From the UHGV virus genome UHGV-1366919: 64,000 nt of DNA, one strand, 5' to 3'. Numbering within the stretch: the first letter of the stretch is position 1; every line of letters begins with the position of its first letter. Both the position numbers and the translations under genes were made by a program. The stretch is from a virus. The notes beneath the pieces were generated by a model. The model was not told where the DNA came from, made no database searches, and saw only the letters and a list, made by a program, of their open reading frames with translations. This document shows positions 6,666-49,711 of this stretch, in pieces.

Positions 6666-7784
6666 TTATATTTGTAAGTGCTTAGAAATTAAATCTTTAA
6701 TTTGTTGATTGTTCTTTTTCCAATCATTTTCCCAAACTTCAATTAATTTGATACCATTTTCTTTACAAGCTTTTCGTTTATTCTTGTGATAACCTGGTTC
6801 TTTCTCTTCGTGAAATTGATGCCAATATTCACCATTATATTCAAAAGCTAATTTAAGTTCGGGAAGATAAATGTCCAATTCTTTTCCGCCAATAAATTTT
6901 CGAGTATTTTCTAAAATCTTGCCAGAATAAAGAGATTTAATATATTGGCAAAGCTCTTTTTCACCCTTAGAACGTTGTATCGCAATGGCACAATTAGGGC
7001 AACCTCTTCCGCTTAAATGAGCATAAGGAGCTTGTTTAAAAATATAATTACATTTATTACATTTAATTATAATTTTCTTATGAGAATGATTATAAGCAGA
7101 TAACGAATAATCATACCTATCTTTATCATGTACTTTTTCAGCTTTTTTAATAAAAGCTTGTAAAGTAGATATACGATTTAAATTTCGACATTTAATGCAT
7201 CCAACACCTTTAAGATGCTGTTTAGGTGTTTGTTTAAAAATATGGCCGCACTTATTACATTTAATAGTAACTTTTATAAGATAACCCTTATAAAGGGTTG
7301 AAGAATAATCAAATCGATTTTTTCCATGAATTTCTTCTGCCTTTTTAATAAATTCATCTATTGATAAATGCTGACGTTCCTTTCCACATTCTGGACAACC
7401 TGCACCGTTTAAATGATTTCCAGCTTTTTGCTCAAATATACTATCATGATAAAGACATTTGATTTTAACATTAGTATCATTATTAATATAGTTGACAAAA
7501 GAATAATCATAAATTCCTTTGCCATGAACAGATTCAGCTTTTTGTATAAATTCTTGAAGAGTTAATCTCGATTTTTCTGCATTTTTTGTTACTGCACATT
7601 TTGGACAGCCATGTCCATACCAATGCATATATGCAGCTTGTTCAAAGGTATGACCACATTTATTACATTTTATTATAAGCTTGGCTTTAGAACCCTGGTA
7701 AACTGATAGAGAATAGTCATACCTATCAGGACCATGCTTTTTTATGGCTTTTTCAATAAACTTTTCAGTTGTAAACTTTACCAT
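6666..7784 (-). CDS. free-standing homing-endonuclease-like protein (paralog 1)
   Basis: 372 aa. About five repeats of the unit FI.KA..HG.KYDYS...Y.N....I.C..HG.F.Q....HL.G.GC..C. C-terminal ELDIYLPELKLAFEYNGEYWH...GIKLIEVW module. Confidence 0.65.
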   Translation of the reverse strand: MVKFTTEKFIEKAIKKHGPDRYDYSLSVYQGSKAKLIIKCNKCGHTFEQAAYMHWYGHGCPKCAVTKNAEKSRLTLQEFIQKAESVHGKGIYDYSFVNYINNDTNVKIKCLYHDSIFEQKAGNHLNGAGCPECGKERQHLSIDEFIKKAEEIHGKNRFDYSSTLYKGYLIKVTIKCNKCGHIFKQTPKQHLKGVGCIKCRNLNRISTLQAFIKKAEKVHDKDRYDYSLSAYNHSHKKIIIKCNKCNYIFKQAPYAHLSGRGCPNCAIAIQRSKGEKELCQYIKSLYSGKILENTRKFIGGKELDIYLPELKLAFEYNGEYWHQFHEEKEPGYHKNKRKACKENGIKLIEVWENDWKKNNQQIKDLISKHLQI

Positions 7785-7841: not shown

Positions 7842-9002
7842 TTAAAGAGTCACAATAAACCGGCTAATTGAGCCTGGAGCCGTAGACACCGAATATCCCA
7901 AACGTAGGACCAAAGCCAGCATGGCAGCTCGAGAGATCTTATTCTTTCGACCAACACTGCCGCAAAGCTGGGCAATATTAGTTCCTTGAATTATAGTGGG
8001 TCCTCCCAGAAAAACTGGAGACAGAGTACCGTCTTCCCTGTTAACGGAATGATTCTGAATATTTCGTTCAATAGCTTCCCGAGTCTTGGAAATGTTGGCA
8101 GGACTGCACATTTCATCAATTATTCCTTGATTAGAAGCTTCAACATTAACCGGAGTACGATCCTTGGAACATTCCTTAACGTCAATGCCCTCAACCTCTA
8201 CATCAGGAGAAGTATAAGCTTCCTTAATTTCATTAAGGACTTTATATTTGCTTACCCGGCACTTTTGACATTCACAATCAGTAGGAACTGAAACAACATC
8301 TTGAGGATTAACTTCTACAGCAACTACGCGCCTTCCAAAACCCTTAGCATAATCATAAGATCCAACATGCAATCCGGCACTACACCAGTTATTTCGATTT
8401 GCATCAACATCTGCAACTACTACTTCAATGACATCGCCGGGATTATTTCGAATTTGGTAATGCCCGTTTACTTTACCTTGAAGCACTCTGGTTTCGGCAT
8501 TACCATGAAGCGAATACATATCTTCTCCAACACCCTTATAGGCAATAAAGGTACCTTCGGAAGTAATAGGCAATTCCTGATAAGAAAGGAAGTCATAAAG
8601 CTCTTCTCTAGAAGTTTCGGAAGGATTAGCCATCAAGTTATCAATAAACTTAAAGTAATGGGTAAAATCAGTACAACCAGACTTCCAAAGAGAAATAAGC
8701 TTTTTTTGAAGACATTTGGGAAGAATCTGAGTCTTATAAGAAGCAATAGTAGTAATTACACCATTTTCATCTCGTTCAACAAATTGGAGATTATCGTAAT
8801 CTTTAATTGTTTCAGAAACGGAATTAATGATATAAGAAGTGGTATTTTCCTTAAGAAGCCTGAGAAGAGTTTTTTCATCATTGGCCATTACCGCATCGAC
8901 AATATCAGTATAGCGAACATCATCGGGAGTAATCTTAACTGCTCGACCATCAACAAAGAAGGTCCAGCCTGAGGCATTCATAATATATGGAATAGAATTC
9001 AT
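7842..9002 (-). CDS. rIIB: rIIB-like protein
   Basis: Segments HYFKFIDNLMANPSETSREELYDFL...ITSEGTFIAYKGV and CSAGLHVGSYDYAKGF...VNPQDVVSVP align with T4 rIIB (FYFPFLENLLENPSQKAVSRLFDFL...ITEDGYFYAWKVV; CSYGLHLCSKDYVDGF...VNPADVVAVP). Confidence 0.8.
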   Translation of the reverse strand: MNSIPYIMNASGWTFFVDGRAVKITPDDVRYTDIVDAVMANDEKTLLRLLKENTTSYIINSVSETIKDYDNLQFVERDENGVITTIASYKTQILPKCLQKKLISLWKSGCTDFTHYFKFIDNLMANPSETSREELYDFLSYQELPITSEGTFIAYKGVGEDMYSLHGNAETRVLQGKVNGHYQIRNNPGDVIEVVVADVDANRNNWCSAGLHVGSYDYAKGFGRRVVAVEVNPQDVVSVPTDCECQKCRVSKYKVLNEIKEAYTSPDVEVEGIDVKECSKDRTPVNVEASNQGIIDEMCSPANISKTREAIERNIQNHSVNREDGTLSPVFLGGPTIIQGTNIAQLCGSVGRKNKISRAAMLALVLRLGYSVSTAPGSISRFIVTL

Positions 9003-9013: not shown

Positions 9014-11371
9014 TTAATATAGTTTATAGTTGAGTTTTTTGAGAATTCGCTTAAAGGTTAATTTAACTTTATCTTTTGTTTGAAATCCTGCACCATTTAA
9101 AACCGCTTGTATTTTTTCTTTTACAGAAGAAGTCATAATATTGGTTGAAATATTATCCAAACAAACTGATGACATAGTATAAAAGAAATTCAATATTTCT
9201 TTATCTGAAAGCTTTTTAATTTCAGCATCAAACTCTCTTTGAATATTATAACATTGATTTGCTAAAATTGAAAGATCAAATATATCCATTATGAATCGGT
9301 TAAATCCTCCTCTATAAAGATTAATTTCATATCTTGTAGAGATAACCGGATAATCAGGAGTCGATGCAGAAATTTTTGGAGCTGTATATCCTGTTACAGA
9401 TTTAAAATCAATATCATAAATCCTGCAGATATTAATGATTTGATCTGGAAGATAAACGAGTTTATGCTTTTTACAATATTCAATATAGGTTTCTTTCCAT
9501 TTAATTTCCATAGCTGAAATGCACCCGAGAGAAACAAATTTATCGTAATGGTTTTTATAAAGCTTTGCTATTCGTTTAATGCCAAAATCTGTACAAAGAT
9601 GAGACTGATAAAGCTGCGTCGGACTATTATAATTAACGAAATTTGTACAAAAGGCCAGATAAGAATTAAGGTAGTTATCATTATTCATGAGCATTGAAGG
9701 ATAAAATACTAACGTATTTTTGTATTCTTTCTCATCAATAATTTCACCGGTATAATAATCCCGGAGAACTACCGCTTCACCATCTGAAGACTTTATTCTT
9801 TTAGGCCTGACATATGTTGAATGCTTAACAATATCAGAATAATTAAACCAATCGATATTTTGCCTAAAGCACGGCTTGTCGTTAAAAGTAAAGGCCGTCC
9901 TTAAATTAAGGAAATTTGCTTTTTCTTCTTCATCTTTAACAAAACAAAAAATATGAGTTCTTCGAAGATCAAAGACTTCTGCTCGATAATCATTCCCCCT
10001 AAGGTGAACAAGATAATTATAAAGGGCATTAATTATTTCACCATAAGGAAGCTTGATAGGATCTTTATCTTGAACGATAAAGATTATTTCACCGTCAAAC
10101 TTCTTAATTGTCGGATTTGAATAAAGGCTTTTCGTTTTAAGATTAATATTAGTAATATTGCCTGAACCTACATAATAATTTTTTGCAACTGAGCAAACAG
10201 TATTCAAATAGCAATCCGGCCATTTAATAATTGAACTATTTCGATAAAATAAAGTACTTTTTGAGTTAGCTTTATTGATAATATCTGAACAAAGTAAATC
10301 ACTGTCAATAAGTTTATCGACATAATCATTAATAGTCTTTTCATAATTTTTATTAATGATTTTAAATTTACCCTTAATCCAATCATTTGTGAAATTGTTT
10401 ATTTCAATCGATTCTCTGGTGGGAGAAATCGGAATTTCACCGCGTTTAAAAAATAAAAGAACGGTACAAGCATTTTTAATGATATTATATTCATTAAAGA
10501 TTTCATTAGGAATATCAATCTTGTAAATGTTATCTCCATCATAAGCATAATAATTACAGCTCTTAAAAAATGAAGAATAAAAAGTATTAGAAGACCAGTT
10601 ATTCGGAATCAGCAAAACTGTATCTTTAATATAAAGAACTCGGGATTTGTCAAGAAATTCTTTATCTCGATACTTTGCAAATCTTGGGGTTTTTTCGTAA
10701 GGGACATAATTTTCCCATTTATCCTCCGGTACGTCTTCAATGTCTATTTTTTCCGGATAACTCCTAAGTTCAATGACAGGTTCATCACTATTGAAGCCAA
10801 AAGTAATATACGCATCCTTGATTAAATCAAGGAACTTGTAATAATCATCAGAATTATTAAGAGGAATCTTTACCTCAATACCCGTATCATTCAAATCACA
10901 GGGTTCAGAATGAATCAAAGAAGCAATAGAATCATTACCATCAATGCTTGAAGAAAATGTATATTTTGTTCCTTCAAATCGAGAAATTACCAAATAAAGG
11001 CCTGTATATGCCGCAGGAGCCTTAGACCCGATTCCAAATCCTCCAATGGATGTATTTTCTTGATTCTTGGTAGATTCAAAATATTGAAAGAAAACTTGAA
11101 AAGTATCTTCTTTGCTAAGACCCCTGGCAAAATCACGAATAGAAAGTTCATTTTTTGTAAGATGAATAGAAACAGGCATTTTAATGCCATATTTTACATG
11201 TTCATCCAAAGCATTGCTTAACGTTTCAAAAAGTGTTGCCTTAAATTTGTCTGAATAGATCCTATCGCGCAAAATAGAAATTGCCATTCCTACGCGCTCG
11301 GCCGAGATAGACTGTTTGACCTGTTCGGCTATACCTCCGCAAATACTTTTATTCTCTTCAAAAACCTTCAT
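9014..11371 (-). CDS. rIIA: rIIA-like protein with N-terminal GHKL ATPase fold
   Basis: TSIGGFGIGSKAPAAYT matches T4 rIIA DFIGGFGLGSKSPFSYT. Lies immediately upstream of rIIB, the same order as in T4. Confidence 0.8.
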   Translation of the reverse strand: MKVFEENKSICGGIAEQVKQSISAERVGMAISILRDRIYSDKFKATLFETLSNALDEHVKYGIKMPVSIHLTKNELSIRDFARGLSKEDTFQVFFQYFESTKNQENTSIGGFGIGSKAPAAYTGLYLVISRFEGTKYTFSSSIDGNDSIASLIHSEPCDLNDTGIEVKIPLNNSDDYYKFLDLIKDAYITFGFNSDEPVIELRSYPEKIDIEDVPEDKWENYVPYEKTPRFAKYRDKEFLDKSRVLYIKDTVLLIPNNWSSNTFYSSFFKSCNYYAYDGDNIYKIDIPNEIFNEYNIIKNACTVLLFFKRGEIPISPTRESIEINNFTNDWIKGKFKIINKNYEKTINDYVDKLIDSDLLCSDIINKANSKSTLFYRNSSIIKWPDCYLNTVCSVAKNYYVGSGNITNINLKTKSLYSNPTIKKFDGEIIFIVQDKDPIKLPYGEIINALYNYLVHLRGNDYRAEVFDLRRTHIFCFVKDEEEKANFLNLRTAFTFNDKPCFRQNIDWFNYSDIVKHSTYVRPKRIKSSDGEAVVLRDYYTGEIIDEKEYKNTLVFYPSMLMNNDNYLNSYLAFCTNFVNYNSPTQLYQSHLCTDFGIKRIAKLYKNHYDKFVSLGCISAMEIKWKETYIEYCKKHKLVYLPDQIINICRIYDIDFKSVTGYTAPKISASTPDYPVISTRYEINLYRGGFNRFIMDIFDLSILANQCYNIQREFDAEIKKLSDKEILNFFYTMSSVCLDNISTNIMTSSVKEKIQAVLNGAGFQTKDKVKLTFKRILKKLNYKLY

Positions 11372-11395
11372 GCTTAAATTACAATAACAAAATTA

Positions 11396-12301
11396 CTATA
11401 ATTTTTCTCTAATTTTCTGGAGGTGTTCAGATATTTCTTTTTTAATGGTTTCTGCATTAGTTTTCCATTGGCTGTCCCAAACTTCAATTAAAGTGATTCC
11501 GGCATCTTTACAAAGTTGCCTTTTATTTTCATGATAGCCAGGTTCTTTTTCTTCATGTATTTTATGCCAGTATTCGCCATTATATTCAAGGGCAAGTTTT
11601 AATTCAGGAAGATAAATATCCAATTCTTTTCGACCAATAAATTTTCTTGTATTTTCGAGAATTTCTCCAGGATAAATTGATTTGATAAAATCGCATAACT
11701 CCTTTTCACCCTTAGATTTCTTTTCATGAAGGGCACATTTTAAACATCCCCGCCCAGTTAAGTGATTATACGCCATTTGAGCAAATTTACCATGGACAGG
11801 ACAAATAATAATCACATTTGTTTCTGCATTAATATAAATTGTTTTCGAATAATCGAATTTATGTCCATGCACTTTTTGAGCACGGTTAATAAATTCTTTT
11901 GTGGTTAAACGCTCCAATCCTACGCAACTTTTGCATCCATGCCCCCTTAAATGATTGATGGGATATTGCTGAAAAGGTCCATGAACAGGGCAAATAATAG
12001 GTACTTTTGCATGATTATTTTTATAGTTTACTTTAGAATAATCATATTTGTTCCCATGAACCTCTCTTGCTTTCTTTATAAACTTCTCAGTCGTTAAAGA
12101 TTTTGCATCAACTGCACATTTAAAACATCCCTGACCTCGTAAATGGGCTCCGGCTCTTTGTTGGAAAGGTCCATGAACCGGGCAAATAACAGTTATAGAA
12201 CTATAAGCATTTTTATAATTTACTTCAGAATAATCAAAAAAGTCTCCATGTATTTTTCTAGCCCTGTCAATAAAAATTTCAGTGGTTATTCTGTTGGGCA
12301 T
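11396..12301 (-). CDS. free-standing homing-endonuclease-like protein (paralog 2)
   Basis: 301 aa. Four zinc-ribbon-like repeats (CPVHGPF.Q...HLRG.GC..C) and the C-terminal ELDIYLPELKLALEYNGEYWH module. Inserted between rIIA and GroEL. Confidence 0.65.
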   Translation of the reverse strand: MPNRITTEIFIDRARKIHGDFFDYSEVNYKNAYSSITVICPVHGPFQQRAGAHLRGQGCFKCAVDAKSLTTEKFIKKAREVHGNKYDYSKVNYKNNHAKVPIICPVHGPFQQYPINHLRGHGCKSCVGLERLTTKEFINRAQKVHGHKFDYSKTIYINAETNVIIICPVHGKFAQMAYNHLTGRGCLKCALHEKKSKGEKELCDFIKSIYPGEILENTRKFIGRKELDIYLPELKLALEYNGEYWHKIHEEKEPGYHENKRQLCKDAGITLIEVWDSQWKTNAETIKKEISEHLQKIREKL

Positions 12302-12309
12302 AATAGTTT

Positions 12310-12354
12310 TTATTCAAAAATAAAAAATCCTCAGATCAATTAAGACCTGAGGAT
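12310..12354 (-). terminator. intrinsic terminator downstream of GroEL gene
   Basis: aatcctcag/ctgaggatt stem, followed by tttttattttt on the minus strand. Confidence 0.55.
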
Positions 12355-12376
12355 TTTCGGTTATCATGATTACAAA

Positions 12377-13981
12377 TCACTTTTCAGATTGTTCATCAAC
12401 CAAAAATGTTTCTGTTGTTAGAATCAAACCTGCCGATGCAGCGGCGTTTTCAATTGCGCAACGACATACACTAAATGGATCAATAATTCCCGCTTCTAAC
12501 ATGTCTACTAACTTTTGCGTCTTAATATCAAACCCAATACTGCCTTTAGCTTTTGCGACCTTTTCGATGATAACATCCGGCCGTTCAACTCCGGCATTCT
12601 CAAGAAGAGTCTTAAGAGGAATGTCAAGAACCTTTCGCATCAGGTTAATACCAGCATTAAAAGATTCATCCCCTGTTTCAAACTTAATAGACTTATTCTC
12701 TTTAATCTTAGCAAGAACAGATCCTCCCCCTGGAATAACTCCGGATCGTAAAGCTGCTTGACAGGCACATACCGCATCATCTACCCGGTCCTTAATTTCA
12801 TTTAATTCAGATTCAGAATTACCTCCGATATTAAGAACACATACTCCTTGGGCAAGCTTGGCAATTCGCTTATTAAGCACATCTTCTTCCCATGTGCCGG
12901 GACTGCAATTATCTCGTTCCTCCTTAAGCAAATCAATATGTTCTTTAAGCCTTTGAGGATTTCCTCCGCCTTTTAAGAAAGTTGTATATCGTTTATCACA
13001 AACAATCTTTTCACAGGTGGCAAAATCTTCCTCTCTAATAGAATTAAAATCACGTGAAAGAAGTTCAGTAAAATATGTACCTCCTAAAGTAATTTCAAGA
13101 TCTTCCATTTCCCTCTTCATGCCGTCTCCATATCCTGGACACTTAATGGCACAAATGTTAATAATGCCTTTAATCTTATTAATGACAAGAGTTTGAAGAA
13201 CTTCGGATTCAATATCCGGAGCGATAATAAACAAAGGCCTTCCGCGAAGTTCTTTAGTATTAAAGACTTTCTGAAGAATAGGCATAATTTGCTGATTATT
13301 TGTCAATTTAATTCCAGATAAAAGAATTAAGGGATTTTCAAGAATACATTCTTGTTTAGTCGTATTATTGACAAAATAAGAACTCATCCAGCCTCGAGGA
13401 ACTCGTAAACCTGCAATAAACTGAGAAGAAGATTCATTGCTCCTGCTGTCATTAATAGTAATGGAACCATCCAAACCTACTTTTTCAACAGCTTCAGAAA
13501 CAAGATGTGCAATTTCTTTATCCCAGTTGGTAGAAACTAAAGCAATTTGGTGAATCTGTTCTGGAGAACATTCCTGCTTAATATTTTCTTTAATATAGTT
13601 GGCAATTGTCTTTGCCGCTGAAATAACTCCGCGTTGAATTGAAATCGGATTATAACCTGTTTCAATCAGCTTCATGCCTTCAGATGCAATAGCCTCAGTG
13701 AGGATTGCGCTGGTACTGGTCCCATCACCAGCCTGGTGCGCTGATTGCTCGGATGCTTGACGAATAATATCTGCACCCATTTTTTCAAGTACATCAGGCG
13801 GATTTACATGGCGAGCTACTGTAACGCCGTCTTTTGTAATATATGTCGCATTACCCATTCGATATATTACATTTCTACCGCCAGGCCCGAGCGTCGAAGA
13901 AACTGCATTAGCAAGTTTCTTTACACCATTAAGCAGTTTCTTCCTGCCTTCATTTCCCATATAAATGTTTTGTTGAATCAT
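12377..13981 (-). CDS. groEL: phage-encoded GroEL-family (Hsp60) chaperonin
   Basis: 534 aa. TLGPGGRNVI, ITKDGVTVAR, AGDGTSTSAILTEAI and VIPGGGSVLAK match GroEL TLGPKGRNVV, ITKDGVSVAR, AGDGTTTATVLAQAI and VVAGGGVALIR. No C-terminal GGM tail. Confidence 0.9.
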   Translation of the reverse strand: MIQQNIYMGNEGRKKLLNGVKKLANAVSSTLGPGGRNVIYRMGNATYITKDGVTVARHVNPPDVLEKMGADIIRQASEQSAHQAGDGTSTSAILTEAIASEGMKLIETGYNPISIQRGVISAAKTIANYIKENIKQECSPEQIHQIALVSTNWDKEIAHLVSEAVEKVGLDGSITINDSRSNESSSQFIAGLRVPRGWMSSYFVNNTTKQECILENPLILLSGIKLTNNQQIMPILQKVFNTKELRGRPLFIIAPDIESEVLQTLVINKIKGIINICAIKCPGYGDGMKREMEDLEITLGGTYFTELLSRDFNSIREEDFATCEKIVCDKRYTTFLKGGGNPQRLKEHIDLLKEERDNCSPGTWEEDVLNKRIAKLAQGVCVLNIGGNSESELNEIKDRVDDAVCACQAALRSGVIPGGGSVLAKIKENKSIKFETGDESFNAGINLMRKVLDIPLKTLLENAGVERPDVIIEKVAKAKGSIGFDIKTQKLVDMLEAGIIDPFSVCRCAIENAAASAGLILTTETFLVDEQSEK

Positions 13982-14003
13982 GATTTACAATTATTATAGC
14001 ATG
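13978..14003. repeat. copy B of imperfect 26-bp direct repeat flanking the HEG at 13978..15069
   Basis: tcatgatttacaattattatagcatg. 21/26 identical to 15066..15091 tcacgatttttaatcattatagcacg. Both copies contain TGcTATAAT and end at a start codon (GroEL ATG / HEG GTG). Confidence 0.6.
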
Positions 14004-15069
14004 TTTCTTTGATAAACTTTTTTAATTTTTCCTTATTCTTTCGCCACTGAGTATCTAAAATTTCTATTAATTTTATACCTTTTTTCTCACAATCTTTTTT
14101 CTTTTGAACATGATAGCCTGGATATTTTTCTTCCTTTAACTTATGATGGTAATCACCGTTGTATTCAAAGGCTAGATTTAATTCAGGAAGATAAACATCA
14201 AGTTCTTTTTTTCCAATAATATCTCTTGGGTTTTCTTGAACCTCGCCTGGATAAATTGATTTAATATATTGACAAAGTTCTATTTCACCTTTAGATCTTT
14301 TTGATGCCGCTAAGCATTTAGGGCAACCGCTTCCGCGTAGATGCGTATTGGGCAACTGTAAAAATGGGCCATGTTTTTTACAAGTTATAATAATTTTTGT
14401 TTTTGCATTTTTATAAGCTACCAAAGAATAATCATACTTGTCTCCGTGAGTAGCTCTAGCTTTTTCTATAAATGCTTCAATAGTTCTCTTATTATTTCCG
14501 GCACAAAATGGGCAGCCGGAGCCTGAAAAATGCTTATCAGGGCGTTGTTCAAAAACTCCATGTATGGGACATATAATTTTTACTTTTGTTCTTTTATTTT
14601 TATAAATTACTAAAGAATAATCATATTTGGTTCCATGAACTTCAATAAATCTTTTTCTAATCTCTTCCTCAGTTAAAAACTGATTTTTAATTGCACATTT
14701 TTTACATCCTTTTCCTATTAAATGGCTTGATGGATCTTGCTTAAGAGTACAACCACATTTATTACATTTTATGATTACCTCGGTTGTTGAATTTATATAA
14801 TCAACTAAAGAATAATCATATCGGCCTTTCCCATGAATTTCTTCAGCTTTTTCTATAAATTCTTCTGTAGTCCTGTTAAATCCTTTACATTTAGGACAAC
14901 CATGGCCCATTAAATGAATGTTGGGAATTTGCTCAAAGTAGCCATGTATGGGACAAAATATTTTAATTAATGTTTTTGTGTTAAAATATACAACTTCAGA
15001 ATAACCATACTTATTGCCATGTATTTCAATAGCTTTTTTAATAAACTCTTTAGTTGTTAATCTTTTCAC
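13978..15069 (-). CDS. free-standing homing-endonuclease-like protein (paralog 3), GTG start, overlaps GroEL start codon
   Basis: 363 aa. Five repeat units and the C-terminal ELDVYLPELNLAFEYNGDYHH module. Its 3' end overlaps the GroEL ATG (ATGA overlap). Confidence 0.65.
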   Translation of the reverse strand: MKRLTTKEFIKKAIEIHGNKYGYSEVVYFNTKTLIKIFCPIHGYFEQIPNIHLMGHGCPKCKGFNRTTEEFIEKAEEIHGKGRYDYSLVDYINSTTEVIIKCNKCGCTLKQDPSSHLIGKGCKKCAIKNQFLTEEEIRKRFIEVHGTKYDYSLVIYKNKRTKVKIICPIHGVFEQRPDKHFSGSGCPFCAGNNKRTIEAFIEKARATHGDKYDYSLVAYKNAKTKIIITCKKHGPFLQLPNTHLRGSGCPKCLAASKRSKGEIELCQYIKSIYPGEVQENPRDIIGKKELDVYLPELNLAFEYNGDYHHKLKEEKYPGYHVQKKKDCEKKGIKLIEILDTQWRKNKEKLKKFIKETCYNNCKS

Positions 15070-15091
15070 GATTTTTAATCATTATAGCACG
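15066..15091. repeat. copy A of imperfect 26-bp direct repeat immediately 5' of the HEG start
   Basis: See 13978..14003. Confidence 0.6.
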
Positions 15092-15228
15092 AATTAATAA
15101 ATTTCTGCCCGCAATTTGAATCTAAATCTTCGAAAGATATGGAATTACCGCAAGGAAGATGCTTATATTGAACAGGAAAATATCCTTTCTGGCAGCAGCA
15201 AGAAGACAGAAGAAATATTACTAATAAT

Positions 15229-15651
15229 TTAACCCCAAGTGAATAATCCATAACCCCAGAACCGGCTTATATTAGGAAGAGGATTTGGTGTTTCTTCAAG
15301 GAAAATAGTCTGACCGGGATGCCGCTTTTCATATACTTGCTTTACAAGGAAAATAATAAGAGGTATAAAAAAGTCCAATATAAAATGAACGTTATCTGTC
15401 TGTCCCTGTAAAATATTTTCTATGAGGTCAAATTTATTTTCTTTGAGATAATCAATTAGTTCAGGCGGAAGAATATCATCTTCACCGGCGGCAAAAATAT
15501 TATCGTCAAAATCAAATCCTAGTTCAGATTTAATGCCATCTAAACATTCTTCAAATTCTTCTTTAGTAAGATCAGTCTTTAACCATACTATATCTCTTTC
15601 ATCATGTCCGTCTCCAGACAAATCGCCATATTCAAAACTAAAAATATTCAT
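15229..15651 (-). CDS. acidic hypothetical protein
   Basis: 140 aa, D/E-rich N-terminal half. Confidence 0.4.
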   Translation of the reverse strand: MNIFSFEYGDLSGDGHDERDIVWLKTDLTKEEFEECLDGIKSELGFDFDDNIFAAGEDDILPPELIDYLKENKFDLIENILQGQTDNVHFILDFFIPLIIFLVKQVYEKRHPGQTIFLEETPNPLPNISRFWGYGLFTWG

Positions 15652-15663: not shown

Positions 15664-15707
15664 GGAAATTCCGCCTAATATTAAATTAGGCGGAATTTCT
15701 TTATTTG
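15664..15707. terminator. perfect 15-bp hairpin between SPFH gene and downstream gene
   Basis: ggaaattccgcctaat / attaggcggaatttc with a 4-nt loop, followed by tttatttg on the + strand. Confidence 0.4.
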
Positions 15708-15711
15708 TTAA

Positions 15712-16761
15712 TTAATTACCAGCAGGTTTAAAATCCGCAATATTCAGAACCTTAAACAAACCATCATTTTGATTAGCTCCTCCCATAATCAGCATTGAAG
15801 GAAGTTTAATATCTTTGAAAGATTCAAAAAACTTAATTCGAGCATAATTACTTCCCATTGCTGCATTCAATTCTCGAATTGCTTCAGCTTCAAGCTTCTT
15901 ACCTTGAGCTTCTGCAGTCTTCATAGCAAGAAGAGCTTCTGCTTCATTTTTCTTTTGAGCAAGCATGGCCAAAGACTCTTGTTCTCGGCGATACCTTGCA
16001 GCATCAGATTCAGCCTTAGCCTGAAGAAGCTTACCTTGAGCTTCTGCAGCCATCTTATTGGCAATTGCCCGGCCTTCTGCATTAGCAATCTCTTCGGAAC
16101 GCTTTGCAATTTCAAGCTGGGTAGCCTGGCGTTCATATTCCTGAGTAGCCTCAACCTTCTTAGTAATACCAAGAGTCACCGATTCAGGCGGAATAGTGGA
16201 ACCAATAGTTACACTTTCAACAATAAATGGAGTACCATTAAGTTGCTTCTTAAGGTTAGTCTCTACCATCTTGGTGATTTCCGGAATCCGGGAAGGAGCT
16301 TCTAGGCCTTTAAACTTAGCAATAGCAGATCGTACTTCAGTACGGAAAGGTTGCTGAATAAATGAAGCATAAGCATCTTGAGCAATAGCTTCCGGGCTTC
16401 GAGCTGTTTCAGAGATAGCTCCATAATTTTCAACAAATTCCTTTACTTTTTCACTGTCGATACGATAAACAAGATAAGATTCAGCCTTCATCTTAAGTTG
16501 GTCCGAACTGCGGACATCATCAAAAGTTTCAGTCTGAGTATAAGGAGTTACGCAAATCTTAATAGAATTCTGCCTCCATACCATACCTGTACTACCGGGT
16601 CCTTTAATTACTTGTTTAAATTCCTTCGAACCAAATATTGGTTCGGAATAAACATAACCCGCATAACCGCCATCAATTTTTTCATTTGAAAAATTAACGG
16701 CAAAAATAATAGCCGCAACAATGGCAATAATTAGAAATAGAGCTGCAAAAAAATCCTTCAT
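15712..16761 (-). CDS. SPFH/band-7 (HflK/flotillin-like) membrane protein
   Basis: N-terminal transmembrane helix (FFAALFLIIAIVAAIIFAV), SPFH-like core, long Ala/Glu/Gln coiled coil (EAQGKLLQAKAESDAARYRRE...). Confidence 0.65.
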   Translation of the reverse strand: MKDFFAALFLIIAIVAAIIFAVNFSNEKIDGGYAGYVYSEPIFGSKEFKQVIKGPGSTGMVWRQNSIKICVTPYTQTETFDDVRSSDQLKMKAESYLVYRIDSEKVKEFVENYGAISETARSPEAIAQDAYASFIQQPFRTEVRSAIAKFKGLEAPSRIPEITKMVETNLKKQLNGTPFIVESVTIGSTIPPESVTLGITKKVEATQEYERQATQLEIAKRSEEIANAEGRAIANKMAAEAQGKLLQAKAESDAARYRREQESLAMLAQKKNEAEALLAMKTAEAQGKKLEAEAIRELNAAMGSNYARIKFFESFKDIKLPSMLIMGGANQNDGLFKVLNIADFKPAGN

Positions 16762-16808
16762 GTTTTATTTTCTTTTTATTTTTTATGTGACTAATATTAA
16801 TATTAATA

Positions 16809-17258
16809 TTATACAGAAATATTATTAATAACTGGAATTCCAACCACTGGAATCTTGGTCTTTAACTTAATCTTATAATCCCCCACAACTAAATCCTTTG
16901 CTTTTATCTTAGAAATAGCATTGGAAACCGTAGTGATATTATATTTTTTACCTCGTTGAGACTTCACAACATCGATAAGATTTCGTTCAACTGCCAACTG
17001 AACTTCTGAATCACTAAGTTCCTCAGGAGCTTGAATAATTACATAAGAACGATCTTGAAATTGTTCGACTTCTGTATCATCCAAAACAATCGGCATTACA
17101 AGAAATCGATTTTTAACTCGATTTTTCTTTTCGGTCAATTCTTTCTCTTGCTCAACAAGAGCCTTTGCTTCCTCCAGAATAATTTTTTGTTTATCCTGAG
17201 GTACTTTAGAAGCCGCAAGAATCATCTCAAGGTCTTCAATATCAATTTTTAGTGCCAT
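16809..17258 (-). CDS. hypothetical protein
   Basis: 149 aa. Confidence 0.4.
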   Translation of the reverse strand: MALKIDIEDLEMILAASKVPQDKQKIILEEAKALVEQEKELTEKKNRVKNRFLVMPIVLDDTEVEQFQDRSYVIIQAPEELSDSEVQLAVERNLIDVVKSQRGKKYNITTVSNAISKIKAKDLVVGDYKIKLKTKIPVVGIPVINNISV

Positions 17259-17261
17259 AGT

Positions 17262-17828
17262 TTATATTTGATATGTGATTAAATCCGTTGTCAATTTATT
17301 AATTGTTTCAATAAATGCTACCGGGATAGCTTCTTCAATTTTTAGTAAAAGTAATTTTAAGTTCTCATTAACTTTAGGGCCAAATAAAATATATTGAGTA
17401 TCATTGTTTAAATCGACAGAATAAGCTTTAAAATTTGCTTGATTAAAACTTATAACTGTAAATCTATCAACAATTAAATTGTTTTTTAAAAAAGTCTCTC
17501 TGACAAAATTCTCAAGATCTCTGGAATAAATTCCTCTATGATGATCTACTTCTACTTCAATTAAAAAAGATTGATTTATATCAATAAAGTGGTCAAATGA
17601 AGCTATTCCTAAAGTATTCCACCAAGTAAAATACCTTTCATTAAGGCCATTCTTTACTTTAATGATTTTGCTTTTATTGGCAAATGGAGAGTAAATTGTA
17701 AAAGCATGTTTAAAATCTTCAATAGTCCTGTAAGCAGGATCTTCAAAGAATTCTTCTTCAAATAAATCGACTTGGTAAGTTTTACCATTACCAAGTCGAT
17801 CAATAAGTTTGAAAACTGCTTGTTTCAT
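17262..17828 (-). CDS. hypothetical protein
   Basis: 188 aa, 1-nt overlap with next gene. Confidence 0.4.
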   Translation of the reverse strand: MKQAVFKLIDRLGNGKTYQVDLFEEEFFEDPAYRTIEDFKHAFTIYSPFANKSKIIKVKNGLNERYFTWWNTLGIASFDHFIDINQSFLIEVEVDHHRGIYSRDLENFVRETFLKNNLIVDRFTVISFNQANFKAYSVDLNNDTQYILFGPKVNENLKLLLLKIEEAIPVAFIETINKLTTDLITYQI

Positions 17829-18502
17829 TAACTCTCAGCAACACGAGCCTTCAAACGGGCAAGAGCATCTTCTTTAGATACAGATTCAATAAATTCATTC
17901 ATTTCATCTTTAGTATCATTAAGAGTTCCGCTTACTTCAATTGAAGCATCGGCCTTAGAATCTTTCTTTTCAAGAATCTTATCTACATCTGCCAGCATCC
18001 CGTTAAAATCATTTTTGCCTGAAATATTCGCAATATCCTTCAAAGCAGCAAGATCTTCCTTCATAGCAGCAGATGCAGCCTTCAACTTAATCTGTTCAAT
18101 TCGAGAATCATAAGAATTAAGAACAACTCTTTGATTACTAATCAACTTATCATAAGTTGCAGTTGCTTCTTCAAGAGCCTTTTCAGCCATATCAAGCTGT
18201 GCCTTAGTATTTTCATATTGAAGAGAAAATTCGGCGGCAAGACTTTCCTTGCCATTCTTAAGAGCAAGAATGGCTCGTTCATTGAGAACTTGAACCTTTT
18301 GCTTAAGACTCTTTACATTTTTAGTCATGTTGTTTACTGTAGTCTTTACAGCAACCAATCGTTCATAAATTTCTTGCTCGGCCTTGCTCTTTTCATCTTC
18401 GAGAGACGCAATAAGAGCATCAACATTCTTACTTTCAAGTGAATTTACACCAAGATTAAGCCAGCCAAACAAAACACGTCCCAAACGTCCAATAATTCTC
18501 AT
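17828..18502 (-). CDS. PspA/IM30 (Vipp1)-like coiled-coil protein
   Basis: N-terminus MRIIGRLGRVLFGWLNLGVNSLESKNVDAL parallels PspA [25 protein letters not shown]. Predicted all-helical coiled coil of about 220 aa. Confidence 0.5.
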   Translation of the reverse strand: MRIIGRLGRVLFGWLNLGVNSLESKNVDALIASLEDEKSKAEQEIYERLVAVKTTVNNMTKNVKSLKQKVQVLNERAILALKNGKESLAAEFSLQYENTKAQLDMAEKALEEATATYDKLISNQRVVLNSYDSRIEQIKLKAASAAMKEDLAALKDIANISGKNDFNGMLADVDKILEKKDSKADASIEVSGTLNDTKDEMNEFIESVSKEDALARLKARVAES

Positions 18503-18508
18503 ATATTT

Positions 18509-18778: not shown

Positions 18779-18806
18779 ATTAAAATAATAAACTTTTACT
18801 ATTCTT

Positions 18807-18820
18807 TTAAAGGTGATTAA
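18807..18820 (-). promoter_or_regulatory. conserved upstream motif, about 29 nt 5' of 18509..18778
   Basis: + strand ttaaaggtgattaa. Confidence 0.4.
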
Positions 18821-20671: not shown

Positions 20672-20936
20672 GAAATGCTTTTATCTTATCTTCAAAAAGA
20701 CTTTCAAGACAAATTATTAATGCCACTAATAATGATATAGGCCAAAATATAGATAAGAATAATTTAAAAAATAAAGATTCCTTTATTCCTTCATATAAAA
20801 AACAATATAAAAAACTAAATGGATGCTTTATTGCTTTTTTAAAACTAAAATTTAAATTAAAATCTATAAAATCATAAAGATTAAATCCTAAAAAAGATAA
20901 AAAAGCAATAATGATATATCCTGCTAATATATTCAT
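20604..20936 (-). CDS. hypothetical membrane protein
   Basis: 110 aa, hydrophobic. Overlaps previous ORF by 68 nt, so the start may be further downstream. Confidence 0.3.
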   Translation of the reverse strand: MNILAGYIIIAFLSFLGFNLYDFIDFNLNFSFKKAIKHPFSFLYCFLYEGIKESLFFKLFLSIFWPISLLVALIICLESLFEDKIKAFLEKSSKKIDEKYREARQKIGID

Positions 20937-21268
20937 AATTCTTTAATTTCTTCGGGAAGAACTTTTTTACGAAGCAAACTTTCTTTAAACCATTTGAAGT
21001 TTTTAATAGAAAACCAGCTAAATTTTTCATCAGGCTTAAAAAATTCTTTCTTAAAAGATAGAAGATCGTTAAATATTTCCACCCTCATCTGATTATAAAA
21101 TTTATCATCTGTAACTACAATAATTTGACCATTTTCCTTTTCATAAAGAGTCAAAATATCTCCTTCTGTTTGACCAAAATAAATTTCTTTGGCGTTAAAC
21201 TTATATGTTATTCCATCAGATCTATTGACAATAGTCCGATTAATACAGTCTTTACAGTCTTTATCCAT
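20933..21268 (-). CDS. hypothetical protein
   Basis: 111 aa. Confidence 0.35.
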   Translation of the reverse strand: MDKDCKDCINRTIVNRSDGITYKFNAKEIYFGQTEGDILTLYEKENGQIIVVTDDKFYNQMRVEIFNDLLSFKKEFFKPDEKFSWFSIKNFKWFKESLLRKKVLPEEIKEL

Positions 21269-32464: not shown

Positions 32465-33994
32465 ATGAACCTTTCTTTATTGACAGTATTATGTCATGGC
32501 AAAAATAATAGCCAACTTAAAGAATTATTAAAAAATAATAAAATATTAAATTTTATTAATACTTTTATTAAAGATAAACCTTATTATGAAACACCCTTTA
32601 GATTTTTAAAATTGTTGAGTAAAAATGCAACATTACCTGCCTGTATTATATGTGGAAATATTATTTCTTATAGTATTTGGAATAGACGTAATAATGCTAA
32701 ATTTTGTTCTAAAACTTGCAAATATTCTAAAGAAGGTAAAGAAAATACTAGAAAAAATATTGAAAAAACATTAATTGAAAAATATAAGGTTAAAAATATT
32801 TTACAACATAAAAAGTTTAAAGAAAAACAAGAATTAACTTGTTTAGCAAAATACGGAACTAAATTTTATTCAAAAACTTCAGAATGTAAAGAAAAAGTTA
32901 AGAAGACGTCATTAGAAAAATTTGGTACAAATAATGTGATGTTCAATAAAAAGGTTTTAAAAAATATAAAAAATAATAATTTATTAAAATTTGGGGTTGA
33001 ATGGCCTTTATCAGATAAAACTATTCATAAAAAAACTATGAATAGTCTTGTTAAAAAACATTTAGAAAAGCTTAAAAAGTTTAATTTAACTTTGTTAGAT
33101 GAATATCAATCCACAAAAGAATACTATAATTTTAAATGTGCTACATGTGGTAATACATTTAAAGATCATTTAAAAAATGGTAGAATTCCTATATGCAAAC
33201 ATTGCTTTCCTTCTAATACTTCTATTGGGGAAAAAGAATTATCAAACTTTATTAAACAATTTTCTTCTAATATTAGCTTAAATGATAGAACATTAATAAA
33301 TCCTTTAGAATTAGATATTGTTATTCCAGAAAAACATTTAGCAATAGAATTTAATGGGCTATATTGGCATTCTGAAGAACATGGTAAAAATGAAAATTAT
33401 CATATTAATAAATCATTATTATGTAAATCTAAAAACTTTAATTTAATTCATATATTTGAAGATGAATGGCTTTTTCAAAAAAATATAATAAAAGGTATTA
33501 TAAAAGATTATTTTAATAGCAAAAAAATAAAAACAAATTTTATTACATTTAAAAAAATCGATAATAAATTAGCTAAAAAATTTAATGAAAAATATAATAT
33601 TCTTGGACATATTACTACAAAAAATAATTTTGGACTTTTTTATAAAAATAGATTAATACATGTATTATCTGTTGGAAAACCAAGATTTAATAAAATTTAC
33701 AAATATGAAATTTATCGATTATCCTCAACATTTAATTTTAAAATTGAAAATTATTTTAAAGTTTTAATTGATAATTTACCTTTATCAATTAAAGAATCAT
33801 TAATATTTTATGAAAATAAACGTTTTCCTATTATTAATAAAACATTATTAGATAATTTGATATTTTTATCAAATTCTAAGCCAAGCTATTTTTTTGTCAA
33901 AAATAAAAATAGATATTCAAAATATAATAAAATAAATAGATTTGATTATAAAATTTGGGATTGCGGATCAACACTTTATCAGGTTAAATATTAA
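32465..33994 (+). CDS. divergent homing-endonuclease-like protein (paralog 6) with C-terminal extension
   Basis: 509 aa. Cys-pair zinc-ribbon repeats. Shares GEKELSNFIKQF...ELDIVIPEKHLAIEFNGLYWH...FNLIHIFEDEW with the other paralogs. Confidence 0.5.
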   Translation: MNLSLLTVLCHGKNNSQLKELLKNNKILNFINTFIKDKPYYETPFRFLKLLSKNATLPACIICGNIISYSIWNRRNNAKFCSKTCKYSKEGKENTRKNIEKTLIEKYKVKNILQHKKFKEKQELTCLAKYGTKFYSKTSECKEKVKKTSLEKFGTNNVMFNKKVLKNIKNNNLLKFGVEWPLSDKTIHKKTMNSLVKKHLEKLKKFNLTLLDEYQSTKEYYNFKCATCGNTFKDHLKNGRIPICKHCFPSNTSIGEKELSNFIKQFSSNISLNDRTLINPLELDIVIPEKHLAIEFNGLYWHSEEHGKNENYHINKSLLCKSKNFNLIHIFEDEWLFQKNIIKGIIKDYFNSKKIKTNFITFKKIDNKLAKKFNEKYNILGHITTKNNFGLFYKNRLIHVLSVGKPRFNKIYKYEIYRLSSTFNFKIENYFKVLIDNLPLSIKESLIFYENKRFPIINKTLLDNLIFLSNSKPSYFFVKNKNRYSKYNKINRFDYKIWDCGSTLYQVKY

Positions 33995-43506: not shown

Positions 43507-43541
43507 AAAAAGCTGAATCAAATTAATGATTCAGCTTTTTT
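43507..43541 (+). terminator. intrinsic terminator (member of a three-copy hairpin family)
   Basis: aaaagctgaatca...tgattcagctttttt. Embedded in the 3' end of the convergent HEG ORF. Confidence 0.5.
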
Positions 43542-44618
43542 AATCTCTTCTTGAATTAAAAGTTTTATTTGATCTTTATTTTTCTTCCATTTACTTTCCC
43601 AAATTTCTATCAATGTAATTCCCCTTTCAATACATTGATTTCTTTTATTTTCATGATAACCCAGATTTCGATCTTCGTGTAATTTATGCCAGTAATCTCC
43701 ATTATATTCAAAGGCTAATTTTAATTCGGGGAGATAAATATCAAGCTCTAATTGATTATCAAGTTGATTTCTAGAATTTTTTATAATTTTTCTTGAATAT
43801 ATCGAATTAATATATTCAAAAAGTTCTTTTTCACCTTTAGATCTTTTCGAAGCTTTTACACATTTAATACAGCCACTTCCATTTAAATGAATATATGCTC
43901 TTTGTCGAAAGACACCATGCCTTGGACAAATAATATTCACATAATCACGAGCACTTTTATAGATAACTAAGGAATAATTATATTTGTCTCCATGAACTTC
44001 TTGAGCTCTTTTAATAAATTCTTCAGTTGTTAAAAATTGCTTTTCTCTTTTACATTCTGGACATTCATTGCCTTGTAAATGTGACCCTGCATGTTGTCGA
44101 AATAATCCATGCTTAGGACATATTATTGTTATATGATTTTTTACGCCATTATAAATCACTTTAGAATAATCATAATAATTTCCATGCACTTTTTTAGCTT
44201 TTTCAATAAATTCTTCTCTTGATAAAAGATCTTTTATTTTAGCACAATAAGGACACCCACTTCCATTTAAATGGCTGCCAGCCATTTGTTCAAATTTATG
44301 CCCGCATTTATTACAAATAATCCAAATTTTTGATTTACAATTTACGTATATCGATATTGAATAATTATACTTATCACCATGAACTTTTCTTGCTTTTTCT
44401 ATAAATTTTTCTGTTGTTAACTGTGCCGTGGGAATACATTTAGGACATCCACATCCTCTTAAATGTTCTGATGCTTTTTGCCAAAAATATCCATGCTCAG
44501 GACAACCAATTTCTATTTTTGCAAGACTACTTTTATATTCAACTCTTGAATAATCATATTTGTCACCATGTATTTCTTTAGCCCTTTGTATAAATTCTTC
44601 AGTTGTTAGCTTTTTCAT
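43518..44618 (-). CDS. free-standing homing-endonuclease-like protein (paralog 4)
   Basis: 366 aa. Five repeat units (CPEHGYFWQ...HLRGCGCPKC etc.). C-terminal ELDIYLPELKLAFEYNGDYWH...GITLIEIW module. Confidence 0.65.
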   Translation of the reverse strand: MKKLTTEEFIQRAKEIHGDKYDYSRVEYKSSLAKIEIGCPEHGYFWQKASEHLRGCGCPKCIPTAQLTTEKFIEKARKVHGDKYNYSISIYVNCKSKIWIICNKCGHKFEQMAGSHLNGSGCPYCAKIKDLLSREEFIEKAKKVHGNYYDYSKVIYNGVKNHITIICPKHGLFRQHAGSHLQGNECPECKREKQFLTTEEFIKRAQEVHGDKYNYSLVIYKSARDYVNIICPRHGVFRQRAYIHLNGSGCIKCVKASKRSKGEKELFEYINSIYSRKIIKNSRNQLDNQLELDIYLPELKLAFEYNGDYWHKLHEDRNLGYHENKRNQCIERGITLIEIWESKWKKNKDQIKLLIQEEIKKAESLI

Positions 44619-48361: not shown

Positions 48362-49711
48362 ATGGCAATTAAACGACTTACGACAGAAATTTTTATAGAA
48401 AGGGCCAAAGCAAAACACGGTATAGACAGGTATGATTACTCGGCAACCAATTATACCCATTGTAATAATAAAATTATAATCAAGTGTTTAATACATAATT
48501 TAATATTTGAAACCTACCCCCATAATCATTTAAGAGGGAATGGAGGTTGCCCTCTATGTGCTAAAGAAGGACGATCTTTATCATGGCAATCTTTTTTAGA
48601 AAAAAGCATCGAAGCTCACGGGCAAAATCGATATGATTATTCATATGCTAAAAAAGAGTATAAAGGAACCAAATCAAAAATTACAATAATATGTAAAAAA
48701 TGTGGACATAGATTTGTTCAATTACCTTCTAATCATATAAAAGGCCATGGTTGTATAAATTGTGTAAATTTAGCTAAATCATTTGATAAAAATTTCTTTA
48801 TTAAAGAGGCAGAAAAGAAACATGGTATTGGGAGATATGATTACTCAAAAATAAAATATAAAAATTCATATACTCCCATTTATATTATTTGTAATAAATG
48901 TAATAAAAAATTTTATCAGCAGCCACGAATACATTTAAAAGGAATTGGATGTTCTCATTGTTATTATAAAAGTAAAACATTAACTAAGGAAGAATTTATT
49001 AAAAGAGCTGAAGAAATACATGAAAAAGGAAAATATGATTATTCTAATGTAGAATATATACAGTCTAACATTAAGATTAAAATTAAATGTAATAAATGTA
49101 ATAATATTTTTTGGCAATATCCCCATGAACATTTAAAAGCCAAAGGATGCCGAATTTGTGCAATTAAAGATATTACTGATACAAAAGAAACATTTATTAA
49201 AAAGGCAAAGAAAGTTCATAAGGATTTTTATGATTATTCAAGTATAAAATATATAAATTCTCAAACTTTAATTTATATTAATTGTCCAAAACATGGTTTT
49301 TTCGCACAACGGCCAAATGCTCATCTAAGAGGTCATGGATGTCCGAATTGTGCACTCGCTGCACAAAGATCTCGAGGAGAAATAGAACTTGGAGAATTTA
49401 TTAAATCAATTTATTCCAATAAAATTTTAAAAAATTCTAAAACACAACTTGGAAATAAAATGGAATTGGATATATATCTTCCTGAATTAAAACTCGCCAT
49501 TGAGTATAATGGCGATTATTGGCATAATTTGAAAGAGGCCAAACATCCTGGCTGCCATGAAGATAAAAGAAACCGATGTAAAGAAAGAGGAATTAAACTT
49601 ATTGAAGTTTTAGATACGGAATGGCAAAAGAATAAAGATCAAATTAAAGAATCTCTTAAAAAACAAATTGGAGAACTTATCAAAATTAGCACCAAAATAA
49701 AATCAGGATAA
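48362..49711 (+). CDS. free-standing homing-endonuclease-like protein (paralog 5) inserted between tail sheath and tail tube genes
   Basis: 449 aa. Six repeat units. C-terminal ELDIYLPELKLAIEYNGDYWH...GIKLIEVLDTEW module. Its last 8 codons (ISTKIKSG) are encoded by the flanking repeat. Confidence 0.7.
   Translation: MAIKRLTTEIFIERAKAKHGIDRYDYSATNYTHCNNKIIIKCLIHNLIFETYPHNHLRGNGGCPLCAKEGRSLSWQSFLEKSIEAHGQNRYDYSYAKKEYKGTKSKITIICKKCGHRFVQLPSNHIKGHGCINCVNLAKSFDKNFFIKEAEKKHGIGRYDYSKIKYKNSYTPIYIICNKCNKKFYQQPRIHLKGIGCSHCYYKSKTLTKEEFIKRAEEIHEKGKYDYSNVEYIQSNIKIKIKCNKCNNIFWQYPHEHLKAKGCRICAIKDITDTKETFIKKAKKVHKDFYDYSSIKYINSQTLIYINCPKHGFFAQRPNAHLRGHGCPNCALAAQRSRGEIELGEFIKSIYSNKILKNSKTQLGNKMELDIYLPELKLAIEYNGDYWHNLKEAKHPGCHEDKRNRCKERGIKLIEVLDTEWQKNKDQIKESLKKQIGELIKISTKIKSG

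Follow-up and report, generated by a model that had tools for sequence, protein, structure and literature searches.

The 64,000-nucleotide stretch of the virus genome UHGV-1366919 analyzed here (hereafter, the window) encodes a full-length chaperonin of the GroEL type, closely flanked by two free-standing genes for homing endonuclease-like proteins (HEG1 and HEG2; HEG, homing endonuclease gene). Comparison with related phage contigs indicates that the GroEL gene is a vertically inherited core gene of a distinct phage clade, older than the HEGs beside it. The overall explanation that we favor, and to which we give a slightly better than even chance, is that of an inherited phage GroEL cage that works with a GroES-type lid, joined later by unrelated HEG invaders. 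The features of the locus are as follows.

12377..13981, minus strand: GroEL (Cpn60) of the group I type, 534 aa, with an intact ATP site and a short acidic C-terminus lacking the Gly-Gly-Met (GGM) repeats; Pfam, PHROG and NCBIfam matches.
12358..12323, minus strand: terminator-like hairpin, with a 15-bp stem and a T-run, between the GroEL stop and the next gene.
11396..12301, minus strand: HEG1, free-standing and homing-endonuclease-like, 301 aa, with three tandem ~64-aa CxxH...CxxC zinc modules and a predicted C-terminal Vsr-like nuclease.
13978..15069, minus strand: HEG2, likewise free-standing and homing-endonuclease-like, 363 aa, with four zinc modules, a predicted Vsr-like nuclease and a GTG start.
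13993..15080, minus strand: HEG2 insertion segment, 1,088 bp, in the window and missing from locus L012 of the comparison contig introduced below.
15075..15251, minus strand: w58, a small Cys-rich open reading frame (ORF) with a hydrophobic N-terminus, 61 aa long in HEG-less genomes and shortened in the window to end in ...SCYND.
9014..11371, minus strand: rIIA homologue (PHROG), the conserved downstream neighbor of GroEL in the lineage.
7842..9002, minus strand: rIIB homologue (PHROG), part of the synteny in relatives.

Family searches indicate a real, full-length group I chaperonin. The protein matches Pfam Cpn60_TCP1 (PF00118; E=2e-59, 201.9 bits against a cut-off of 34.3) and PHROG 5725, 'chaperonin groEL' (E=2e-131), and it exceeds the NCBIfam subfamily cut-offs of NF009487 (499 bits; cut-off 352) and NF000592 (494 bits; cut-off 397). 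Its score against the equivalog model TIGR02348 falls below the cut-off (483.5 versus 582.1 bits) and so marks it as a divergent member, 34% identical to E. coli GroEL and 40-48% identical to the nearest cellular GroELs. About 110 chaperonin sequences in the PDB match it, the best being a reconstructed ancestral chaperonin of the Fibrobacteres-Chlorobi-Bacteroidetes (FCB) group. In the alignment, the residues of the ATP/Mg/K site (T30-P33, K51, D52, D87-T91, D398, G415/416 and D495) are all kept, with T90S as the sole change, and conservation extends to the hinge glycines and the R197-E386 pair. An earlier, sequence-only reading of this DNA had described a 534-aa GroEL at these coordinates without a Gly-Gly-Met tail, and the family matches, the ATP residues and the C-terminus bear it out: the protein ends in ...TETFLVDEQSEK (end residues LVDEQSEK), and acidic tails are found throughout its clade.

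Eight apical positions bear on the question of the lid (Y199, Y203, F204, L234, L237, L259, V263 and V264 in E. coli GroEL). Work by Fenton and colleagues in 1994 is said to have found that mutation of these positions in the E. coli protein abolishes both substrate and GroES binding. In the phage protein they read WYFMLLVI, so that 8/8 are hydrophobic. Viral GroELs with an adjacent GroES gene have the same pattern at 7-8 of the eight positions, with W199 in one group, and many of them are also without the GGM repeats; the absent tail is therefore no evidence for GroES independence. Judging by protein length and alignment, there is no large apical insertion able to serve as a built-in lid. The combination of intact ATP residues, a hydrophobic groove and no lid insertion makes an ATP-driven cage with a GroES-type lid likely, and the sequence evidence as a whole leans to GroES-competence.

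The position of this protein among chaperonins is distinctive. A protein search returned matches at 99% identity, then 13 cluster representatives at 50-59%, and then cellular GroELs at 42% or less. In a 120-sequence alignment, identity within the clade is at least 49.9%, and identity between the clade and anything outside it is at most 48%. By these values the protein belongs to a distinct, deep phage clade. Could the gene nevertheless have been captured recently from a host, or be bacterial DNA placed in a phage contig by faulty assembly? The best cellular matches (~40-42%) include metagenome-assembled genomes (MAGs) of Bacteroidaceae and Puniceicoccales, the top PDB match is the ancestral FCB-group chaperonin, and one exact copy of HEG2 was binned with a Gastranaerophilales MAG. 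Against these hints stand the gap between the phage clade (50-59%) and anything cellular (at most 48%), the phage genes that surround GroEL on numerous independent contigs, some as long as ~200 kb, and a scan of GTDB species genomes that found no close relative (and hence no clue to the host), so that capture or mis-assembly is exceedingly improbable. The view that phage-encoded GroEL is rare has to be given up, since this GroEL has 261 matching records (E<=1e-5) in the phage collection, of which a few are bacterial.

Genomic context could be retrieved for six relatives with a 50-59% identical GroEL (loci L003/L004, L007, L008, L009 and L104, the last from a 203-kb contig). In each of these loci, GroEL is followed by a hairpin and T-run and then by rIIA and rIIB, all on one strand; hairpins equivalent to that in the window lie after GroEL in L104, L007, L008 and L009. 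The upstream order thioredoxin - w89 - w149 - (w58) - GroEL recurs in relatives, and L104 also has the block of macro-domain, PspA, w149 and SPFH/Band7 genes found in the window. The terminator and the rIIA gene reported earlier are both real parts of the locus, and GroEL, being syntenic in relatives, is ordinary for this lineage, which is the outcome that the sequence-only reading had itself named as refuting its view. No HEG lies beside GroEL in any of the six relatives. Since GroEL holds the same position in these HEG-free loci, it predates the HEGs and was not brought by them, and we regard it, from synteny, as an apparently vertically inherited core gene. In one 58%-identical relative (L003, 6567-6968), the GroEL-rIIA spacer, which houses HEG1 in the window, is filled by an unrelated 133-aa ORF without a Pfam match; insertions into this spacer may be recurrent.

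The recent history of the HEGs can be read from a near-identical contig, IMG/VR IMGVR_UViG_3300045988_182131 (107,464 bp, ~97% identical to the window; loci L012, L092, L094, L099, L100, L103 and L106). HEG2 is present neither in L012 nor in any of the 50-59% relatives, and L012 preserves an exact empty site. There, w58 is 61 aa long and ends in ...SCYNNCKS, its TGA overlapping the GroEL ATG; the HEG2-less allele (L012 ~9960-10030) reads ...AATTCGTGCTATAATAATTGTAAATCATGATTC.... The window has an extra 1,088 bp (13993-15080) following the 9-mer TGCTATAAT, which forms a direct repeat at the two junctions (15081-15089 and 13993-14001). The GTG start of HEG2 is five bases past the end of the shortened w58, and HEG2 reads out via the former last w58 codons (NNCKS), with its TGA stop overlapping the GroEL ATG (ATGA). 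Because HEG2 was inserted in frame into the last codons of w58, the ATGA overlap with GroEL is ancestral and was simply inherited by HEG2.

HEG1, which is ~52% identical to HEG2, lies between the GroEL terminator and the promoter-like sequence TAATTTTG, 24 nt upstream of the rIIA start. It is present in L012 (11681-12394) as a 237-aa allele with two modules, as against 301 aa and three modules in the window, the difference being a 192-bp in-frame indel (window 11973-12164). The loss or gain of exactly one module (64 aa) implies recombination between tandem modules, and such recombination would possibly change target specificity.

Identity between the window and L012 is mosaic. A 3.7-kb tract centered on HEG1 (9781-13450) has only 7 mismatches (~99.8% identity, versus a background of ~97%), while divergence beyond HEG2 is ~3% and identity in rIIB drops to 87-95%. 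A tract of this kind is what co-conversion around a HEG would give, and it is suggestive of that process, only suggestive because similar near-identity tracts occur far from any HEG (16500-17500, 20000-20500 and 24500-25070). The HEG family itself is scattered over the window, which holds six paralogs; besides HEG1 and HEG2 these are as follows.

6666..7784, minus strand: third HEG paralog, 372 aa, immediately downstream of rIIB.
43518..44618, minus strand: HEG paralog, 366 aa.
48362..49711, plus strand: HEG paralog, 449 aa.
32465..33994, plus strand: distant HEG paralog sharing the nuclease domain, 509 aa, absent from two near-identical contigs (L106, L105).

The 509-aa protein (HEG4) is the most distant of the six, and its gene is cleanly absent from two near-identical IMG/VR contigs, at L106 (4059-4075) and L105 (1569-1576), which makes a second presence/absence polymorphism. 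The regions of the other HEG paralogs have diverged in near-identical contigs. Absence or divergence at several sites argues that HEG turnover is genome-wide and, together with the empty site, the distribution points to the HEGs as late invaders.

These observations bear directly on the proposal, made in the sequence-only reading, that GroEL sits in a hot spot of HEG-driven exchange or arrived as cargo with the HEGs. Three HEGs do lie within the 8.4-kb rIIB-GroEL stretch, and the 3.7-kb tract around HEG1 could be read in the same sense. However, the clustering is weak (rough Poisson P~0.05 for a fixed window, not significant after scanning), near-identity tracts also occur away from HEGs, and the family is dispersed over the window and polymorphic elsewhere. 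The cargo part of the proposal is contradicted by the fixed position of GroEL in the six HEG-free relatives and by the ~97% identical L012, which has GroEL without HEG2. We therefore hold an exchange hot spot, or joint arrival, to be very unlikely, and continue with HEGs that invaded independently of the chaperonin.

What kind of nuclease do the HEGs encode? Each consists of 2-5 tandem ~64-aa CxxH...CxxC modules (Pfam DUF723, DUF4379, CapR) followed by a conserved C-terminal domain of ~105 aa, and the HEG1 and HEG2 ORFs match PHROG endonuclease / homing-endonuclease families (E=4e-61 and 2e-76, respectively). The AlphaFold 2 (AF2) model of the C-terminal domain is of high quality (predicted local distance difference test score, pLDDT, 90.3), and its best compact Foldseek matches in the PDB are the catalytic domain of I-Bth0305I (3r3p; probability 1.00, template modeling (TM) score on the target 0.79), the DUF559-like NGO0050 (3hrl; TM 0.72) and Vsr (1vsr; TM 0.51). 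By this model the nuclease is a Vsr-like PD-(D/E)XK enzyme of the I-Bth0305I/EDxHD type, not an HNH enzyme. The HNH identity given by the PHROG label was rejected, there being no Pfam or NCBIfam HNH match and the C-terminal domain folding in a Vsr-like manner. The earlier description of HEGs on both sides of GroEL, one overlapping its start, is borne out by the PHROG matches and the ATGA overlap. Four residues (E97, D99, N112 and H117) are invariant in the six paralogs, at spacings close to those in I-Bth0305I (D to N, 13 versus 12; N to H, 5 versus 5). No NUMOD or helix-turn-helix (HTH) N-terminal region was found in the HEGs, the tandem zinc modules standing in its place, and a PDB sequence search with HEG2 gave no match. 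An NCBIfam thioredoxin-like match of HEG2 was rejected as spurious, arising from CxxC. Two points weigh against this assignment: the fifth EDxHD residue (the last Asp) cannot be placed in the HEGs, which have an invariant H128 instead, and HEG activity is deduced from presence/absence polymorphism and fold. On the modeled fold, the proteins are best described as predicted homing endonucleases in which tandem zinc-module DNA binders are fused to a Vsr-like nuclease.

Given a GroEL that appears able to use GroES, the next question is where the lid would come from. A GroES hidden Markov model (HMM) was built from five seed sequences and iterated twice with 38 viral GroES sequences that adjoin other viral GroELs, which served as positive controls; the search covered ~54% of the estimated 195-203-kb genome. 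The earlier statement that no GroES gene is recognizable in the window stands: in a six-frame translation of the window, the best match after iteration has E=9. The iterated model gave no match stronger than E~0.4 in any of three sets of sequence: the window, the loci of the near-identical contig (~106 kb), and the 3-12 kb that flank GroEL on either side in relatives. Likewise, Pfam and PHROG scans of 87 small ORFs (38 in the window, 49 in the rest of the contig) found no member of the Cpn10, GroES, gp31 or CocO families. A 111-aa ORF (20933..21268) matched the GroES model at E=7.3 in the first round, disappeared on iteration, and was dismissed as noise.

The conserved gene w149 (16809-17258, minus strand) was considered as a hidden GroES-fold co-chaperonin and rejected, since its AF2 model is alpha/beta (pLDDT 70, moderate) and Foldseek gave nothing at E<1 and no GroES or gp31. 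The family is lineage-restricted by profile search and is missing from the examined flanks of clade members L007 and L008. Its invariant C-terminal tail, KTKxPVxGIPVxN, is modeled with low confidence and is probably flexible or disordered; there is a loose likeness between this tail and the mobile loop of GroES with its Gly and hydrophobic tripeptide.

Three sources of closure, or of its absence, can be weighed. First, the lid could be host GroES, which we place somewhat short of an even chance. Second, the phage could be self-sufficient and encode a co-chaperonin elsewhere (GroES, a gp31/CocO-type protein or an unrecognized fold). T4-like phages typically carry gp31, most virome GroELs fall in GroES-linked clades (PMC5649160), and ~90 kb of the genome lies outside the search; on the other hand, viral GroES, where present, nearly always adjoins GroEL (38 loci), 106 kb searched with the iterated HMM, Pfam and PHROGs contained none, and w149 is predicted to be alpha/beta rather than a GroES barrel (again with moderate pLDDT, 70). 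We hold a phage-encoded lid to be somewhat unlikely. Third, the chaperonin could work as open rings, as an ATP-dependent holdase or foldase with no lid at all, like EL gp146, OBP gp246 and AR9 gp228. Such phage chaperonins are documented (PMC7185714, PMC9598537), and this option fits the lack of a GroES gene in 106 kb or beside any clade member, the missing GGM tail, the loss of D83, the K/R at position 234 in most clade members and the variable inter-ring contacts. The documented cases, however, have an occluded H/I groove and stand much farther from GroEL (22-25% identity) than the present protein (34%), whose 8/8 hydrophobic groove residues match the pattern of GroES-partnered viral GroELs, often GGM-less too; in addition, the GroES search covered only about half of the genome. 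We consider lid-less operation, the main rival reading, rather unlikely.

Several observations nevertheless weigh against a cage closed by a GroES-type lid. Most, if not all, of the other clade members carry K or R at position 234, a GroES and substrate contact in E. coli (L234); the whole clade has lost the aspartate of the D83-K327 salt bridge (H or F in its place, and G in one member); and residues at the inter-ring contacts vary. All three features are plausibly compatible with altered allostery or ring dynamics, or with GroES independence. The searched ~54% of the genome leaves room for a phage GroES or gp31 in the remaining ~46% (~90 kb). The fit of this GroEL to the GroES of its host is presumed, and its assembly, expression and folding activity are predicted. 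A broader claim, that the whole clade consists of group I chaperonins without a canonical GroES, either lid-less or with an unrecognized partner for which w149 would be one candidate, strikes us as improbable. The clade in question is fixed next to rIIA/rIIB, in a PspA-SPFH-thioredoxin-macro neighborhood, in a very prevalent gut T4-like phage.

The best explanation remains an inherited cage with a GroES-type lid and unrelated passengers. GroEL would be transcribed together with upstream genes, transcription ending at its own terminator just before rIIA-rIIB. Most likely the protein would use ATP to fold phage proteins inside a cage that a GroES-type lid closes; unfolded substrate and the mobile loop of GroES would both bind at the retained apical groove of helices H and I. 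With a short acidic tail in place of GGM, the cavity floor would be larger and charged. The T4-type major capsid protein is a classical chaperonin client, and it is the presumed client here. HEG1 would have invaded the gap that separates the terminator of GroEL from the promoter of rIIA, and HEG2 the last codons of w58, in frame, taking over the stop/start overlap with GroEL. Judging from their family, the HEGs would spread when, in a co-infected cell, they cleave alleles that lack them and the ensuing repair copies them in; they would be passengers unrelated to GroEL function.

The genes upstream of GroEL form a conserved neighborhood, also on the minus strand.

15712..18502, minus strand: conserved upstream neighborhood, comprising SPFH/Band7 (15712-16761), w149 (149 aa; 16809-17258), a 188-aa ORF and PspA/IM30 (17828-18502).

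More broadly, GroEL and rIIA/rIIB stand in a conserved block with PspA/IM30, SPFH/Band7, a macro-domain protein and thioredoxin (15712-19586, minus strand), and the same block is found in the ~58%-identical 203-kb relative (L104, 7923-11528); a role as an envelope/proteostasis module is conceivable. Between the SPFH/Band7 gene and a 140-aa ORF lies a hairpin (15665-15700), a perfect palindrome of 15-16 bp with a terminator score on both strands. ARAGORN reported an 88-nt tRNA-Asp (19024-19111, minus strand) inside the macro-domain ORF (18817-19281); since Rfam has no tRNA there at the gathering score, the call is probably false. Rfam gave no match at that score anywhere in the window, so there is no intron-type RNA around the HEGs. 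The motif TAnnTTTG, which we take to be the Bacteroidota -7 promoter consensus, lies on the minus strand 21 nt before the HEG1 start (12315-12322) and 24 nt before that of rIIA (11388-11395); of 42 minus-strand genes, just 5 have one within 80 nt of their start. A sigma-70 promoter scan of the window found 41 sites against a shuffled expectation of 34.8 +/- 6.7, hence no excess, and is probably irrelevant to this type of host. Farther along, terL seems to be split into three consecutive minus-strand ORFs (39276-39875, 38817-39272 and 36887-38824; 199 + 151 + 645 aa), all with terminase PHROG matches, an arrangement that suggests an insertion, an intron or intein, or a frameshift in the gene.

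The window also codes for terminase, tube, baseplate-wedge, DHFR and thioredoxin proteins. A near-identity DNA search of the phage collection with the region gave no match, and the closest cultured phages, which are T4-like, share just 26-31% identity in rIIA and tail sheath. The exact GroEL sequence is NCBI DAO62697.1, 'MAG TPA: GroEL [Ackermannviridae sp.]', and is present on 616 contigs; the exact HEG2 sequence is on 486, one of them binned as the human-gut 'Candidatus Gastranaerophilales bacterium HUM_18' MAG. Long contigs with these or near-identical proteins cluster at 195-203 kb, which gives a genome of ~197 kb. The window thus belongs to an uncultured, prevalent, roughly 197-kb T4-like phage lineage, on which a literature search found nothing specific. 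Database names alone point to a human-gut origin. A Shine-Dalgarno-like motif precedes only 2 of 71 genes in the window, and upstream regions are A/T-rich; the paucity of such motifs fits a host with weak Shine-Dalgarno use, for example one of the Bacteroidota or of a cyanobacterial/Melainabacteria lineage; Bacteroidota and Gastranaerophilales would be candidate hosts.

Because the exact GroEL is on 616 public contigs, the chaperonin is probably made often where the phage lives. A phage that owns its cage lends itself to the study of what advantage the cage brings, and the base-exact empty and filled HEG2 sites are a ready substrate for study of the uncharacterized zinc-module plus Vsr-like nuclease architecture.

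Viral GroELs without a neighboring GroES have been seen before. Marine et al. (2017, ISME J; PMC5649160) described a viral GroEL-only clade on contigs without GroES, and proposed either no co-chaperonin or use of the host's, the same pair of options that the sequence-only reading offered. The present protein shares with that marine-virome clade a full-length group I GroEL on phage contigs with no adjacent GroES gene. It differs in environment, which is human gut by the MAG/TPA (third-party annotation) record names, and in its setting, a T4-like ~197-kb lineage with fixed GroEL-rIIA-rIIB synteny that is unmentioned in PMC5649160. The best phage-collection matches (38%) belong to phages with GroES>GroEL operons, such as Flavobacterium phage vB_FspM_immuto (MW353176); these too are group I proteins with a hydrophobic groove, often GGM-less, whereas their GroES is encoded immediately upstream of GroEL, where the present locus has w58 and HEG2 and no GroES was found. 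EL gp146, OBP gp246 and AR9 gp228 are phage GroEL homologues that are active without a lid or a phage GroES (PMC7185714, PMC9598537). They have 22-25% identity to GroEL, an occluded H/I groove and no GroES binding, in contrast to the 34% identity and retained groove residues of the present protein. T4 itself pairs its gp31 with host GroEL (PMC6318259), and both systems have a T4-like phage acting on chaperonin folding, presumably of the capsid protein. The arrangement here is the inverse: T4 supplies a lid for the host cage, while this phage supplies the cage, with no gp31 or CocO among the 87 small ORFs.

The free-standing HEGs of T4 are of the GIY-YIG (seg) and HNH (mob) families. They resemble the present HEGs in their insertion between conserved genes, their presence or absence in close relatives and their flanking identity tracts, and differ in nuclease family. 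A closer parallel is offered by the EDxHD Vsr-like homing endonucleases of Taylor et al. (2011; PMC3239194), which include the free-standing 'Hef' of T-even phages. This family shares with the HEGs described here a C-terminal Vsr-like fold and a free-standing state in phages, and the E/D/N/H spacings are close to those of I-Bth0305I; the differences from I-Bth0305I are the 2-5 treble-clef zinc modules (DUF723/DUF4379/CapR-like) that replace NUMOD/HTH and the fifth motif residue, which could not be placed. Phage GroELs without an adjacent GroES and free-standing HEGs in T4-like genomes were therefore already known. Three things are new: this GroEL clade, which has a fixed place before rIIA and rIIB in a prevalent T4-like phage of the gut; an HEG2 insertion resolved to the base; and the predicted combination of zinc modules with a Vsr-like nuclease.

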